From Escherichia coli (GTDB lineage Bacteria; Pseudomonadota; Gammaproteobacteria; Enterobacterales; Enterobacteriaceae): a stretch of DNA of 64,000 nt. Below the pieces are notes generated by a model. The model saw only the letters and a list, made by a program, of their open reading frames with translations. It made no database searches and was not told where the DNA came from. The DNA lies in assembly GCF_003790525.1 (NCBI RefSeq), contig NZ_CP033635.1. One strand, written 5' to 3'. Below, piece by piece: positions 43,209 to 50,663 of the stretch. Both the position numbers and the translations under genes were made by a program. Each line of letters begins with the position of its first letter. The stretch's first letter is position 1.

Positions 43209-44297
43209 ATGGCTCAAATCTTCAATTTTAGTTCTGGTCCGGCAATGCTACCGGCAGAGGTGCTTAAACAGGCTCAACAGGAACTGCGCGACTGGAACGG
43301 TCTTGGTACGTCGGTGATGGAAGTGAGTCACCGGGGCAAAGAGTTCATTCAGGTTGCAGAGGAAGCCGAGAAGGATTTTCGCGATCTTCTTAATGTCCCC
43401 TCCAACTACAAGGTATTGTTCTGCCATGGCGGCGGTCGCGGTCAGTTTGCTGCTGTTCCGTTGAATATTCTCGGTGATAAAACCACTGCAGATTATGTTG
43501 ATGCCGGTTACTGGGCGGCAAGTGCCATTAAAGAAGCGAAAAAATACTGCACGCCTAATGTCTTTGACGCCAAAGTGACTGTTGATGGTCTGCGCGCGGT
43601 TAAGCCAATGCGCGAATGGCAACTCTCTGATAATGCTGCTTATATGCATTATTGCCCGAATGAAACCATCGACGGTATCGCCATCGACGAAACGCCAGAC
43701 TTCGGCAAAGATGTGGTGGTCGCCGCCGACTTCTCTTCAACCATTCTTTCCCGTCCGATTGACGTCAGCCGTTATGGCGTGATTTACGCTGGCGCGCAGA
43801 AAAATATCGGCCCGGCAGGCCTGACAATCGTCATCGTTCGTGAAGATTTGCTGGGCAAAGCGAATATCGCGTGTCCGTCGATTCTGGATTATTCCATCCT
43901 CAACGATAACGGCTCCATGTTTAACACGCCGCCGACATTTGCCTGGTATCTGTCTGGTCTGGTCTTTAAATGGCTGAAAGCGAACGGCGGTGTAGCTGAA
44001 ATGGATAAAATCAATCAGCAAAAAGCAGAACTGCTGTATGGGGTGATTGATAACAGCGATTTCTACCGCAATGACGTGGCGAAAGCTAACCGTTCGCGGA
44101 TGAACGTGCCGTTCCAGTTGGCGGACAGTGCGCTTGACAAATTGTTCCTTGAAGAGTCTTTTGCTGCTGGCCTTCATGCGCTGAAAGGTCACCGTGTGGT
44201 CGGCGGAATGCGTGCGTCTATTTATAACGCCATGCCACTGGAAGGCGTTAAAGCGCTGACAGACTTCATGGTTGAGTTCGAACGCCGTCACGGCTAA
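43209..44297 (+). CDS. serC: phosphoserine aminotransferase
   Basis: 362 aa, [15 protein letters not shown] start. Confidence 0.97.
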
Positions 44298-44367
44298 TGT
44301 CGAAATTTTGCTTAATCCCCACAGCCAGCCTGTGGGGTTTTTATTTCTGTTGTAGAGAGTTGAGTTC

Positions 44368-45651
44368 ATGGAATCCCTGACGTTACAACCCATCGCCCGT
44401 GTCGATGGCACTATTAATCTGCCCGGTTCCAAGAGCGTTTCTAACCGCGCTTTATTGCTGGCGGCATTAGCACATGGCAAAACAGTATTAACCAATCTGC
44501 TGGATAGCGATGATGTTCGCTATATGCTTAATGCGTTAAAGGCATTAGGGGTAAGCTATACGCTTTCAGCCGATCGTACGCGTTGCGAAATCATCGGTAA
44601 CGGCGGTCCATTACACGCAAAAAGCGCCCTGGAGTTGTTCCTCGGTAACGCCGGAACGGCAATGCGTCCGCTGGCGGCAGCTCTTTGTCTGGGTAGCAAT
44701 GATATTGTGCTGACCGGTGAACCGCGTATGAAAGAACGCCCCATTGGTCATCTGGTGGATGCGCTGCGCCTGGGCGGGGCGAAGATCACTTACCTGGAAC
44801 AAGAAAATTATCCACCATTGCGTTTACAGGGCGGCTTTACTGGCGGCAACGTTGACGTTGATGGCTCCGTTTCCAGCCAGTTCCTCACCGCACTGTTAAT
44901 GACTGCGCCTCTTGCACCGGAAGATACGGTGATTCGTATTAAAGGCGATCTGGTCTCTAAACCTTATATCGACATCACACTCAATCTGATGAAGACGTTT
45001 GGTGTTGAAATTGAAAATCAGCACTATCAACAATTTGTCGTTAAAGGCGGGCAGTCTTATCAGTCTCCGGGTACTTATTTGGTCGAAGGCGATGCATCTT
45101 CGGCTTCTTACTTCCTGGCAGCAGCAGCAATCAAAGGCGGCACTGTAAAAGTGACCGGCATTGGACGCAACAGTATGCAGGGTGATATTCGCTTTGCTGA
45201 TGTGCTGGAAAAAATGGGTGCGACCATTTGCTGGGGCGATGATTATATTTCCTGCACGCGTGGTGAACTGAACGCCATTGATATGGATATGAACCATATT
45301 CCCGATGCGGCGATGACCATTGCCACCGCGGCGTTATTTGCAAAAGGCAACACCACGCTGCGCAATATCTATAACTGGCGTGTTAAAGAGACCGATCGCC
45401 TGTTTGCGATGGCAACAGAACTGCGTAAAGTCGGTGCGGAAGTCGAAGAGGGGCACGATTTTATTCGCATTACGCCACCGGAAAAACTGAAATTTGCTGA
45501 GATCGCCACTTATAATGATCACCGGATGGCGATGTGTTTCTCGCTGGTCGCATTATCAGATACGGCAGTGACGATTCTTGATCCCAAATGCACGGCCAAA
45601 ACATTTCCGGATTATTTCGAGCAGCTGGCGCGGATTAGCCAGGCAGCCTGA
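44368..45651 (+). CDS. aroA: 3-phosphoshikimate 1-carboxyvinyltransferase (EPSP synthase)
   Basis: 427 aa, [23 protein letters not shown] start. Confidence 0.97.
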
Positions 45652-45710
45652 ATGAACAACGTGCAATAAATAGCCAAATCTTTCTTTATCAAAACGTCGG
45701 CACATTGCCG

Positions 45711-47136
45711 TAATGCCGATCAGTTAAGGATCAGTTGACCGATCCAGTGGCTGTGTAAGAATCCGGAAACGCTCACTTGTTTCCGGATTTTTTTATGCAC
45801 ATTGGACAGGCTCTTGATCTGGTATCCCGTTACGATTCTCTGCGTAACCCACTGACTTCTCTGGGGGATTACCTCGACCCCGAACTCATCTCTCGTTGCC
45901 TTGCCGAATCAGGTACTGTAACGCTACGCAAGCGCCGTCTTCCCCTCGAAATGATGGTCTGGTGTATTGTTGGCATGGCGCTTGAGCGTAAAGAACCTCT
46001 TCACCAGATTGTGAATCGCCTGGACATCATGCTGCCGGGCAATCGCCCCTTCGTTGCCCCCAGTGCCGTTATTCAGGTCCGCCAGCGCCTGGGAAGTGAG
46101 GCTGTCCGCCGCGTGTTCACGAAAACAGCGCAGCTCTGGCATAACGCCACGCCGCATCCGCACTGGTGCGGCCTGACCCTGCTGGCCATCGATGGTGTGT
46201 TCTGGCGCACACCGGATACACCAGAGAACGATGCAGCCTTCCCCCGCCAGACACATGCCGGGAACCCGGCGCTCTACCCGCAGGTCAAAATGGTCTGCCA
46301 GATGGAACTGACCAGCCATCTGCTGACGGCTGCAGCCTTCGGCACGATGAAGAACAGCGAAAATGAGCTTGCTGAGCAACTTATAGAACAAACCGGCGAT
46401 AACACTCTGACGTTAATGGATAAAGGTTATTACTCACTGGGACTGTTAAATGCCTGGAGCCTGGCGGGAGAACACCGCCACTGGATGATACCTATCAGAA
46501 AGGGAGCGCAATATGAAGAGAGCAGAAAACTGGGTAAAGGCGATCATCTGGTGAAGCTGAAAACCAGCCCGCAGGCACGAAAAAAGTGGCCGGGACTGGG
46601 AAATGAAGTGACAGCCCGCCTGCTGACCGTGACGCGCAAAGGAAAAGTCTGCCATCTGCTGACGTCGATGACGGACGCCATGCGCTTCCCCGGAGGAGAA
46701 ATGGCGGATCTGTACAGTCATCGCTGGGAAATCGAACTGGGATACAGGGAGATAAAACAGACGATGCAACTGAGCAGGCTGACGCTGAGAAGTAAAAAAC
46801 CGGAGCTTGTGGAGCAAGAGCTGTGGGGTGTCTTACTGGCTTATAATCTGGTGAGATATCAGATGATTAAAATGGCGGAATATCTGAAAGGTTACTGGCC
46901 GAATCAACTGAGTTTCTCAGAATCATGTGGAATGGTGATGAGAATGCTGATGACATTGCAGGGCGCTTCACCGGGACGTATACCGGAGCTGATGCGCGAT
47001 CTTGCAAGTATGGGACAACTTGTGAAATTACCGACAAGAAGGGAAAGGGCCTTCCCGAGAGTGGTAAAGGAGAGGCCCTGGAAATACCCCACAGCCCCGA
47101 AAAAGAGCCAGTCAGTTGCTTAACTGACTGGCATTA
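45711..47136 (+). mobile_element. IS4 insertion sequence, complete (1426 bp) with 13-bp target-site duplication
   Basis: Terminal inverted repeats TAATGCCGATCAGTTAAG and reverse complement of CTTAACTGACTGGCATTA; flanking direct repeat CGGCACATTGCCG at 45698-45710 and 47137-47149. Confidence 0.85.
45795..47123 (+). CDS. IS4 transposase
   Basis: ORF 45777-47123; start at [15 protein letters not shown] (442 aa); DDE transposase. Confidence 0.85.
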
Positions 47137-47258
47137 CGGCACATTGCCGGCGTTTTTTTTCGGACCTTGTGAGTCATTTTGATTAATGGTAGCGTCGTTT
47201 GTCAATGTAAGTTATTGATACATAATATTTATATATGATTAATCAACGGATGATTCAC

Positions 47259-48023
47259 ATGAAGAATACTAAATTACTGCTGGCGATTGCGGCCTCTGCA
47301 GCTTTACTGACAGGGTGTCAGAATACCCACGGTATTGATACCAATATGGCTATCAGCTCAGGTTTAAATGCCTATAAAGCAGCAACGTTAAGCGATGCTG
47401 ATGCAAAAGCGATTGCCAATCAGGGCTGTGCCGAAATGGACAGCGGCAATCAAGTCGCAAGTAAATCCAGCAAGTACGGTAAACGTCTGGCAAAAATCGC
47501 CAAAGCATTGGGTAACAATATTAATGGCACGCCGGTCAACTATAAGGTTTATATGACCAGCGACGTCAACGCATGGGCGATGGCGAACGGCTGTGTTCGT
47601 GTCTACAGTGGCCTGATGGACATGATGAACGACAACGAAATTGAAGGCGTTCTGGGTCATGAACTGGGCCACGTCGCGTTGGGTCACTCGCTGGCTGAAA
47701 TGAAAGCTTCTTATGCGATCGTTGCCGCACGTGATGCGATTTCCGCTACCAGCGGTGTGGCTTCCCAGCTTTCTCGCTCACAATTAGGTGATATCGCAGA
47801 AGGCGCTATCAATGCGAAATACTCCCGCGATAAAGAGTCCGAAGCAGATGATTTCTCCTTTGATCTGTTGAAGAAACGTGGCATCAGCACCCAGGGGCTG
47901 GTTGGCAGCTTTGAAAAATTGGCCAGCCTGGATGGCGGTCGCACCCAGTCCATGTTTGACTCTCACCCACCATCAACAGAGCGTGCGCAACACATCCGTG
48001 ATCGTATCGCCTCTGGTAAGTAA
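47259..48023 (+). CDS. ycaL: M48-family metalloprotease lipoprotein YcaL
   Basis: Start at MKNTKLLLAIAASAALLTGC (lipobox); HELGH zinc motif. Confidence 0.9.
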   Translation: MKNTKLLLAIAASAALLTGCQNTHGIDTNMAISSGLNAYKAATLSDADAKAIANQGCAEMDSGNQVASKSSKYGKRLAKIAKALGNNINGTPVNYKVYMTSDVNAWAMANGCVRVYSGLMDMMNDNEIEGVLGHELGHVALGHSLAEMKASYAIVAARDAISATSGVASQLSRSQLGDIAEGAINAKYSRDKESEADDFSFDLLKKRGISTQGLVGSFEKLASLDGGRTQSMFDSHPPSTERAQHIRDRIASGK

Positions 48024-48195
48024 ATCATTGTCATCTTTCGGGCTGGTCTTCTGCCAGCCCGCTATAATTGCGCAATAAATCCCCATCTGAATACAGACAA
48101 AACTGGTTTTTGCACACAACGTTAACGATTTGTGGCGTCGGCGCGTATAATGCGCGCGGTTATGTTAACGGTACGCCTGTTTTAAGGAGATAAAG

Positions 48196-48879
48196 ATGAC
48201 GGCAATTGCCCCGGTTATTACCATTGATGGCCCAAGCGGTGCAGGGAAAGGCACCTTGTGTAAGGCTATGGCGGAAGCGTTGCAATGGCATCTGCTGGAC
48301 TCGGGTGCAATTTATCGCGTACTGGCACTGGCGGCATTACATCACCATGTTGATGTTGCATCGGAAGATGCGCTGGTGCCGCTGGCATCCCATCTGGATG
48401 TACGTTTTGTGTCGACCAATGGCAATCTGGAAGTGATCCTCGAAGGGGAAGATGTCAGCGGCGAAATTCGTACTCAGGAAGTGGCGAATGCTGCCTCACA
48501 AGTCGCGGCATTCCCACGCGTTCGTGAAGCATTATTGCGTCGCCAACGCGCGTTTCGCGAATTACCAGGCCTGATTGCCGATGGCCGCGACATGGGAACG
48601 GTGGTATTCCCTGATGCGCCAGTGAAAATTTTCCTTGACGCCTCCTCGGAAGAACGTGCGCATCGCCGCATGCTACAGTTGCAGGAGAAGGGCTTTAGTG
48701 TTAACTTTGAGCGCCTTTTGGCCGAGATCAAAGAACGCGACGACCGCGATCGTAACCGAGCGGTAGCGCCACTGGTTCCGGCAGCCGATGCTTTAGTGTT
48801 GGATTCCACCACCTTAAGCATTGAGCAAGTGATTGAAAAAGCGCTACAATACGCGCGCCAGAAATTGGCTCTCGCATAA
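48196..48879 (+). CDS. cmk: cytidylate kinase
   Basis: 227 aa; P-loop GPSGAGKGT. Confidence 0.95.
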
Positions 48880-48989
48880 GCGACCGAATTTGCAGTACCC
48901 CCGTTGCAATGGAATGACAGCGGGTATGTTAAACAACCCCATCCGGCATGGAGCTAGGTGGACGTTAAATATAAACCTGAAGATTAAAC

Positions 48990-50663
48990 ATGACTGAATC
49001 TTTTGCTCAACTCTTTGAAGAGTCCTTAAAAGAAATCGAAACCCGCCCGGGTTCTATCGTTCGTGGCGTTGTTGTTGCTATCGACAAAGACGTAGTACTG
49101 GTTGACGCTGGTCTGAAATCTGAGTCCGCCATCCCGGCTGAGCAGTTCAAAAACGCCCAGGGCGAGCTGGAAATCCAGGTAGGTGACGAAGTTGACGTTG
49201 CTCTGGACGCAGTAGAAGACGGCTTCGGTGAAACTCTGCTGTCCCGTGAGAAAGCTAAACGTCACGAAGCCTGGATCACGCTGGAAAAAGCTTACGAAGA
49301 TGCTGAAACTGTTACCGGTGTTATCAACGGCAAAGTTAAGGGCGGCTTCACTGTTGAGCTGAACGGTATTCGTGCGTTCCTGCCAGGTTCTCTGGTAGAC
49401 GTTCGTCCGGTGCGTGACACTCTGCACCTGGAAGGCAAAGAGCTTGAATTCAAAGTAATCAAGCTGGATCAGAAGCGCAACAACGTTGTTGTTTCTCGTC
49501 GTGCCGTTATCGAATCCGAAAACAGCGCAGAGCGCGATCAGCTGCTGGAAAACCTGCAGGAAGGCATGGAAGTTAAAGGTATCGTTAAGAACCTCACTGA
49601 CTACGGTGCATTCGTTGATCTGGGCGGCGTTGACGGCCTGCTGCACATCACTGATATGGCCTGGAAACGCGTTAAGCATCCGAGCGAAATCGTCAACGTG
49701 GGCGACGAAATCACTGTTAAAGTGCTGAAGTTCGACCGCGAACGTACCCGTGTATCCCTGGGCCTGAAACAGCTGGGCGAAGATCCGTGGGTAGCTATCG
49801 CTAAACGTTATCCGGAAGGTACCAAACTGACTGGTCGCGTGACCAACCTGACCGACTACGGCTGCTTCGTTGAAATCGAAGAAGGCGTTGAAGGCCTGGT
49901 ACACGTTTCCGAAATGGATTGGACCAACAAAAACATCCACCCGTCCAAAGTTGTTAACGTTGGCGATGTAGTGGAAGTTATGGTTCTGGATATCGACGAA
50001 GAACGTCGTCGTATCTCCCTGGGTCTGAAACAGTGCAAAGCTAACCCGTGGCAGCAGTTCGCGGAAACCCACAACAAGGGTGACCGTGTTGAAGGTAAAA
50101 TCAAGTCTATCACTGACTTCGGTATCTTCATCGGCCTGGACGGCGGCATCGACGGCCTGGTTCACCTGTCTGACATCTCCTGGAACGTTGCAGGCGAAGA
50201 AGCAGTTCGTGAATACAAAAAAGGCGACGAAATCGCTGCAGTTGTTCTGCAGGTTGACGCAGAACGTGAACGTATCTCCCTGGGCGTTAAACAGCTCGCA
50301 GAAGATCCGTTCAACAACTGGGTTGCTCTGAACAAGAAAGGCGCTATCGTAACCGGTAAAGTAACTGCAGTTGACGCTAAAGGCGCAACCGTAGAACTGG
50401 CTGACGGCGTTGAAGGTTACCTGCGTGCTTCTGAAGCATCCCGTGACCGCGTTGAAGACGCTACCCTGGTTCTGAGCGTTGGCGACGAAGTTGAAGCTAA
50501 ATTCACCGGCGTTGATCGTAAAAACCGCGCAATCAGCCTGTCTGTTCGTGCGAAAGACGAAGCTGACGAGAAAGATGCAATCGCAACTGTTAACAAACAG
50601 GAAGATGCAAACTTCTCCAACAACGCAATGGCTGAAGCTTTCAAAGCAGCTAAAGGCGAGTAA
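48990..50663 (+). CDS. rpsA: 30S ribosomal protein S1
   Basis: 557 aa with six S1 repeats. Confidence 0.97.

Follow-up and report, generated by a model that had tools for sequence, protein, structure and literature searches.

Does the insertion sequence that separates aroA from ycaL in this Escherichia coli chromosome represent a strain-specific event that alters the transcription of the neighbouring genes, or does it occupy a site that the element prefers? We addressed this question in a window of 64,000 nucleotides (the whole stretch of DNA that was analysed), in which a copy of IS4 lies between the serC-aroA pair and ycaL, cmk, and rpsA. The size of IS4, its ends, its duplications of 11-13 bp, and a strong preference for certain targets have been established since about 1980, and the element has long been described as highly site-specific. 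Our reading is that this IS4 lies in the aroA terminator hairpin, that the hairpin is a preferred target and a recurrent hot spot, and that the insertion is probably near-neutral for its neighbours; we give this reading a probability of about 0.88. The public record already contains the element, its target preference, and this insertion, which is annotated in SMS-3-5 and other genomes. What is added here is the count of occupied genomes (109 of 5,426), the two orientations, an estimate of at least five insertion events, and a quantitative confirmation that the IS4 clade homes to terminator-like sites.

The IS4 copy and its target site

The element is a complete IS4 of 1426 bp (Table 1). Its left end reads TAATGCCGATCAGTTAAGG and its right end is the reverse complement of TAATGCCAGTCAGTTAAGC, with 16/18 identity over the first 18 bases. 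The inverted repeats TAATGCCGATCAGTTAAG and TAATGCCAGTCAGTTAAG thus match at 16/18, as is characteristic of the imperfect terminal repeats of about 18 bp found in IS4. The transposase gene encodes 442 amino acids with no internal stops, while RefSeq places its start at a TTG at position 45777, giving 448 amino acids. The translation scored 299.9 bits against the NCBIfam model NF033592 'IS4 family transposase' (cut-off 115), and a Y-2-R-3-E-6-K motif is readable in it, consistent with the single DDE-transposase ORF expected of IS4. At the nucleotide level, 1417 of 1426 bases are identical to the annotated IS4 of K-12 MG1655 (99.4%, nine differences), above the threshold of at least 95% identity to the reference over the full length of about 1426 bp that defines an IS4 isoform. 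The same sequence, at 100% identity, also carries the annotation 'IS4-like element IS4 family transposase' in eight complete E. coli genomes, including SMS-3-5.

The transposase is identical to WP_024210537.1 of SMS-3-5 and differs from the commonest allele, WP_000483766.1, by the changes A95V, L234I, I243S, and H363Y. Among the copies sampled at the aroA site, only the identical copy of SMS-3-5 shares these changes. The 5,426 complete E. coli genomes together hold roughly 5,500 copies of IS4, with up to 32 in a single genome; these high numbers, along with the repeated insertions at the aroA site, point indirectly to an ability to transpose. The copy in the window is full-length and apparently functional. 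The sequence-only reading had described a full 1426-bp IS4 with an intact transposase and terminal inverted repeats; its coordinates and sequences proved correct to the base, and a check for mismatches found that both the ends and the transposase match IS4.

Table 1 Features around the IS4 insertion, with positions in the 64,000-nucleotide window
Feature	Position	Strand	Basis and remarks
serC	43209-44297		RefSeq annotation of identical SMS-3-5 DNA
aroA (3-phosphoshikimate 1-carboxyvinyltransferase), last gene of the serC-aroA pair	44368-45651	+	ORF list, SMS-3-5 RefSeq annotation; stop codon 45649-45651
A tract and left outer stem (AAAACGT) of the original terminator, parted from GCG and T8	45691-45697	+	Sequence; fold of the reconstructed empty site
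Left copy of the 13-bp target-site duplication CGGCACATTGCCG, forming the hairpin apex (5-bp stem, 3-nt loop)	45698-45710	+	Sequence, repeat search, other genomes
IS4	45711-47136	+	Transposase co-directional with aroA; 100% identity to annotated IS4 copies, 9 differences from K-12 IS4
IRL, left terminal inverted repeat	45711-45728	+	Sequence comparison of element ends
Promoter-like site (TTGACC, 16 nt, TG-AAGAAT), candidate transposase promoter	45735-45762	+	Consensus scan; putative function
IS4-internal hairpin (14 pairs, 8-nt loop) with T7, ending directly at the transposase ATG	45757-45794	+	Inverted repeat; -22.3 kcal/mol; conserved in 8 relatives
IS4 transposase ORF	45795-47123	+	ATG at 45795 to stop at 47123; 442 aa
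Right-end hairpin (11 pairs), then TCTTTTT; inward-facing, terminator-like	47107-47132	-	Inverted repeat, terminator scan
IRR, right terminal inverted repeat	47119-47136	-	Sequence comparison of element ends
Right copy of the 13-bp target-site duplication	47137-47149	+	Sequence, repeat search, other genomes
Right outer stem (GCG) and T8 tract of the original terminator	47150-47160	+	Sequence, terminator scan, fold
Promoter-like site (TTGTCA, 16 nt, CATAAT), intact, in the part of the native aroA-ycaL spacer that follows the insertion	47199-47226	+	Consensus scan
ycaL (metallopeptidase), followed by cmk and rpsA	47259-48023	+	RefSeq annotation of the identical stretch

The insertion is flanked by direct repeats, such that positions 45691-47160 read AAAACGT-CGGCACATTGCCG-(1426 bp)-CGGCACATTGCCG-GCG-TTTTTTTT. 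The repeat occurs exactly twice in the window, in both cases abutting an end of the IS4; shuffled sequence gave a mean of 0.18 matches to the 13-mer when one mismatch was permitted. Its length falls within the range of 11-13 bp that membership of IS4 requires. To obtain an empty-site query, IS4 and one copy of the repeat were removed from the window sequence, and the result was searched against 5,426 complete E. coli genomes. In 4954 of them (about 91%), a single place covered at least 80% of the query. Around 360 genomes had neither a full-coverage empty site nor IS4. Strain R11, one of them, has phage genes after aroA; others probably belong to divergent lineages whose alignments were split by megablast.

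All five empty sites sampled (K-12, CFSAN061771, 21AH007, O145 RM13514, and EBJ003) displayed a single 13-mer and no insertion sequence. The site of K-12 MG1655 reads CAAAACGTCGGCACATTGTCGGCGTTTTTTTT, with T in place of the C of the window, and the other four carry the C allele. No tandem 13-mer lacking an insertion sequence was seen among these five sites. Since the empty sites hold one copy and the occupied site holds two, the 13-mer arose as a target-site duplication; it did not exist as a repeat beforehand. The 13-bp duplication proposed from the sequence alone is therefore confirmed by the comparison that had been proposed along with it, as reference strains including K-12 have an uninterrupted aroA-ycaL region.

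The target itself has the anatomy of a terminator. As RNA, the reconstructed empty site is predicted to fold into a 12-bp stem with a 3-nt loop (-16.7 kcal/mol, or -14.0 kcal/mol for the K-12 allele) followed by U8. This hairpin starts 40 nt past the aroA stop codon and, with its T8, was also flagged by a consensus terminator scan. By its predicted fold, the target is the intrinsic (Rho-independent) terminator of the serC-aroA transcription unit, of which Duncan and Coggins reportedly gave a description in 1986. A search of window positions 44000-49000 returned no Rfam match at E-values up to 1, suggesting that no known structured RNA is involved. Our literature search returned nothing relevant on IS4 at aroA/ycaL, on IS4 in Rho-independent terminators, or on the serC-aroA terminator.

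The duplicated 13-mer corresponds to the whole apex of the hairpin, CGGCA-CAT-TGCCG, which is kept at both junctions. The insertion parted only the three outer base pairs of the stem (the ACGU / GCGU region), the A tract, and the T tract. The sequence-only reading had recognised a split stem-loop of the serC-aroA terminator: the target is indeed that hairpin with its T8, but the 13-mer is a complete apex rather than one half of the stem. We propose that IS4 entered the Rho-independent terminator hairpin behind aroA by transposition, through a staggered cut of 13 bp centred on the hairpin dyad. Such a cut would duplicate the apex on both sides of the element. In the empty site, AAA-ACGTCGGCACATTGCCGGCG-TTT, the symmetric A and T arms lie at equal distances from the 13 bp that were duplicated. 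All the testable defining features of IS4 (length, ends, transposase family and motif, duplication, target arms, and identity) are present in this sequence, which places the element in IS4.

The window also holds a second mobile element that has a terminator hairpin as its attachment site. Positions 1-27767 are absent from the otherwise near-identical region of SMS-3-5, and they match a P2-like prophage (with a phage integrase and a Cox-family protein) that adjoins dmsA in 25 other E. coli genomes. At about 27767/27768, prophage and SMS-3-5-like sequence meet inside a hairpin and T-run terminator between serS and dmsA. This junction reads ...GTTAAATCTC / CTGCGGGCGCTTTTTTTG in the window and AAAAAGCGC / CTGCGGGCGCTTTTTTT in SMS-3-5.

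Recurrence at the aroA site

Among the 109 genomes with IS4 at the aroA-ycaL position, 69 carry it in the orientation of the window and 40 carry it inverted, the latter counted by means of a query construct with an inverted element. IAI39, CE10, and NCTC86 belong to the inverted group. We compared 15 other occupied E. coli genomes along with the window, and the insertion point and the presence of a 13-bp repeat were the same in 15/15. Two alleles of the repeat were found, CGGCACATTGCCG and CGGCACATTGTCG, which have C or T at position 11. The two copies within one genome always agree, and both alleles occur with both orientations. Meanwhile, the left flank of two genomes of the reverse orientation is clearly distinct (TTTTCAAAGACG).

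A neighbour-joining tree built from 4.6 kb of the flanks intersperses forward, reverse, and empty genomes. In it, the window groups with IAI39, which has the reverse orientation, while the forward carriers CUVET21-1780 and AST215 group with the empty genomes CFSAN061771 and 21AH007, respectively. The two target alleles and the interleaved flank haplotypes suggest that at least five independent insertions took place at one phosphodiester pair, which is the most economical reading of these sequences. Probably, about ten independent insertions are represented among the 15 sampled genomes.

Two other explanations of the locus must be weighed against this reading. One holds that a single ancient insertion was inherited vertically, or spread together with its flanks by recombination, so that the site is no hot spot. 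Many of the 69 same-orientation genomes are near-identical across the 2251-bp query, which suggests that much of this count reflects clonal descent. A single event is nevertheless very improbable. The inverted element of the other 40 genomes lies between repeats of unchanged polarity, an arrangement that simple recombination cannot produce, and other IS4 sites are likewise occupied in both orientations. Neither would one event leave two repeat alleles, matched within each genome and each found in both orientations, or occupied genomes beside empty ones in the flank tree. The other explanation, in which the 13-mers flank a decayed, immobile relic by chance or as a repeat that was there before, is more improbable still. 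Beyond the four residue differences from the commonest transposase allele, no support for it was found. The pre-existing repeat is already refuted by the empty sites, an exact 13-mer would abut both ends by chance with a probability of about 4^-13, and the ORF and both ends are intact in a copy identical to those of eight genomes. Repeated insertion of an intact IS4 into the same hairpin is the reading that we retain.

Some of the loci inspected depart from this arrangement. In AST215 (NZ_AP043621.1), the IS4 at the aroA site is 1525 bp long, since 99 bp inside the transposase gene are duplicated in tandem; the reading frame is not interrupted, and the 'IS4 family transposase' annotated by RefSeq is longer. 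In MS20645 (NZ_CP082091.1), the element is reversed, has 1424 bp, and is annotated as frameshifted, representing a decaying copy at the hot spot. In strain R11 (NZ_CP107155.1; 2930-5430 of the locus), a recombinase gene and phage tail-fibre genes take the expected place of ycaL, about 120 bp past the aroA terminator, which suggests that the spacer between aroA and ycaL contains a prophage insertion or a rearrangement breakpoint.

Independent hits in several lineages and in both orientations make IS4 at aroA a homoplasic marker. The insertion had been put forward as a strain marker, a role in which it performs poorly when taken alone. Its presence between aroA and ycaL is unsafe as evidence of clonality, and orientation, repeat allele, and flanks are all needed.

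Target preference of IS4 and its relatives

Mayaux et al. are said to have derived, in 1984, the target consensus AAA-N20-TTT from an IS4 insertion in the pheS,T attenuator terminator; our literature search on this consensus found no relevant paper. The chromosomal IS4 site of K-12 reads AAA-CAC-CAGAACCAAGAT-GCCTA-TTT, with a 12-bp duplication. It fits the consensus yet is not a hairpin, suggesting that the A and T arms may count more than the hairpin itself. In favour of the target rule, De Palmenaer et al. (PMC2266710) comment in general terms on the specificity of target arms in the IS4 subgroup. In mutation-accumulation lines of K-12, Lee et al. (2016, PMC5009759) recorded eight new insertions of IS4.

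We surveyed further sites in metagenomes, where the exact 33-nt right end of IS4 retrieved 80 junctions in contigs, representing 31 distinct sites. A run of at least four T at +13 to +26 was present in 22/31 of these sites (71%), compared to 7% of random positions of the same contigs. For runs of at least three T in the same interval, the figures were 27/31 (87%) and 21%. The commonest site by far was the chromosomal IS4 site of K-12, which accounted for 18 of the 80 junctions. At least two other IS4 sites in E. coli from gut metagenomes were occupied in both orientations, for example those with flanks CAGCCTAGCTGGGGGTTTTC and CAGCTAGGCTGGGGGTTCCGG.

For relatives of IS4, a 22-nt right end retrieved 71 loci from about 30 other Enterobacterales species, with 63 distinct right flanks. 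Full-length copies from these species are 75-82% identical to IS4 and are hence IS4-like relatives rather than IS4. At each of positions +17 to +20, T was found in 70-84% of the 63 flanks. A T run was present in 76% of them (6% in the control), a short palindrome at the start of the flank in 67% (9% in the control), and both a T run and a palindrome or hairpin in 51% (0.6% in the control). Relatives for which both flanks were available, whether full-length or internally deleted, displayed a matching A run on the opposite side and duplications of 11-13 bp.

The Enterobacterales with the exact 22-nt terminus include Budvicia, Kosakonia, Silvania, Buttiauxella, Pectobacterium, Photorhabdus, Rosenbergiella, and Yersinia. 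Many of these Enterobacterales loci are truncated remnants, contigs are often broken there, and Kosakonia oryziphila has up to 16 loci. The terminus was matched as well in an Oscillospiraceae MAG and in a Chryseobacterium assembly. These are probably contamination, since the matches are short or the flank is common with a Citrobacter contig of the same study.

Both the target bias and the recurrence at the aroA terminator are seen directly in the genomes and contigs surveyed here. The position of this insertion is no accident: IS4 favours dyad-symmetric targets in which about 20 bp separate an A run from a T run. Intrinsic terminators that follow an A tract have exactly this geometry, which makes the aroA terminator a textbook target and a recurrent hot spot, and its dyad symmetry accounts for the occurrence of both orientations. 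A broader proposal, which we hold at somewhat less than even odds, is that IS4 and its Enterobacterales relatives are systematic 'terminator homers'. These elements would recognise an A run, a dyad, and a T run, insert at the dyad in either direction, and bring inward terminators of their own that replace the one interrupted and insulate the transposase from host read-through. We infer this last role for the two internal hairpins.

Insertions of this kind are likely to have almost no effect on the host, given the terminator-like hairpins that the element carries with it. If the broader proposal holds, terminator homing would be a safe-harbour strategy, and single terminators such as that of aroA would be recurrent homoplasic hot spots across E. 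coli. Those who annotate genomes or use insertion sequences for typing should expect IS4-clade elements at intrinsic terminators. For biology at large these findings have little significance. An IS4 at aroA is ordinary, given that the element habitually inserts into hairpins of this type and has struck the same position repeatedly in other strains.

Transcription around the insertion and known systems

The left-end hairpin lies 47 nt inside IS4. Across eight IS4 relatives with varying loops, 99% of the stem cells are paired, and one G-C to A-U compensatory pair was found. With eight sequences and a single compensatory pair, this covariation lends the hairpin some slight support. A simple terminator scan did not list the hairpin, probably because the stem extension consumes the T run; its energy comes from direct folding. 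The left arm of the hairpin overlaps with the -10 hexamer of the candidate transposase promoter; a transcript started by the element itself would thus lack that arm, and transcripts reading through from outside would contain it. Protection against outside transcription is known from IS10 and IS50. By analogy, the left-end hairpin may shield the transposase gene of IS4 from transcription that enters from the flanks.

All statements on transcript ends made here are drawn from T runs and the energies of hairpins. At the left junction, UAAUGCC stands after the apex hairpin in place of a U tract, and the energy of the best local fold changes from -16.7 to -8.6 kcal/mol, such that the native terminator is predicted to be disabled there. 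The sequence-only reading had suggested that the insertion may alter termination and read-through into ycaL-cmk-rpsA. The loss at the left junction favours a rival explanation along these lines, in which serC-aroA termination is abolished and read-through, or an outward IS4 promoter, alters the expression of these genes. We regard this as unlikely. Against it stands the left-end hairpin with its U7, stable and conserved in relatives. The right junction keeps the apex, GCG, and T8; the apex alone reaches -6.9 kcal/mol and would be a weak terminator. A consensus scan of the plus strand found no outward promoter-like site in the last 130 nt of IS4. In the opposite orientation, an incoming transcript would be offered the 11-pair hairpin and TCTTTTT, and the insertion persists in many lineages beside the essential genes cmk and rpsA. 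Considering also the promoter-like site of ycaL, which lies downstream of the insertion, altered read-through finds no support in the anatomy of the locus.

In the reading that we prefer, serC-aroA transcripts most likely end at the left-end hairpin and U7, about 85 nt beyond the end predicted for K-12. Where the element is inverted (40 genomes), the aroA transcript would meet the right-end hairpin and its T-rich run. Extra read-through into ycaL is unlikely because each end of IS4 has an inward hairpin with a T run and the right junction has the apex with T8. The gene would also keep its own upstream region. Collectively, these features predict that ycaL, cmk, and rpsA probably undergo little or no change and that the insertion is close to neutral for its neighbours.

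The nearest known system is the IS4 of K-12 (insG, b4278; 'insertion sequence:IS4', NC_000913.3 4502090-4503515), which has the same 1426 bp, ends, and 442-aa frame. Both copies have duplications in the range of 11-13 bp and targets that fit AAA-N20-TTT. The K-12 copy differs in that it occupies another chromosomal site and is flanked by a repeat of 12 bp instead of 13 bp. There are six amino-acid differences between the transposase of the window and K-12 InsG, four of which occur in no other sampled copy except that of SMS-3-5.

SMS-3-5, IAI39, CE10, NCTC86, and about 100 other genomes share the insertion point and the 13-bp duplication. In SMS-3-5, the IS4 copy and its flanks equal positions 27768-64000 of the window save for 3 mismatches, whereas positions 1-27767 have no counterpart there; the window thus comes from a close relative of SMS-3-5 rather than from that strain. 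Other carriers differ from the window by an inverted element (the 40 genomes), by the T allele in some cases, by the 99-bp duplication of AST215, or by the frameshift of MS20645.

The insertion in the pheS,T attenuator likewise reportedly involves a Rho-independent terminator structure with A and T runs. There, according to what Mayaux et al. reportedly described in 1984, the insertion destroyed a regulatory attenuator and changed the expression of the operon. In contrast, the aroA target is a terminator at the end of an operon, and no change in expression is expected.

Elements that target REP sequences offer a wider comparison. These include IS1397 and ISKpn1 (IS3 family), elements of the IS110 family, and ISRm22 (IS4 family) (Tobes and Pareja 2006, PMC1525189). 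Like IS4, they home to short extragenic palindromes between genes, which limits the damage to the host. They differ in relying on REP repeats, whereas IS4 uses a generic arrangement of A run, dyad, and T run that is typical of intrinsic terminators and belongs to no repeat family.
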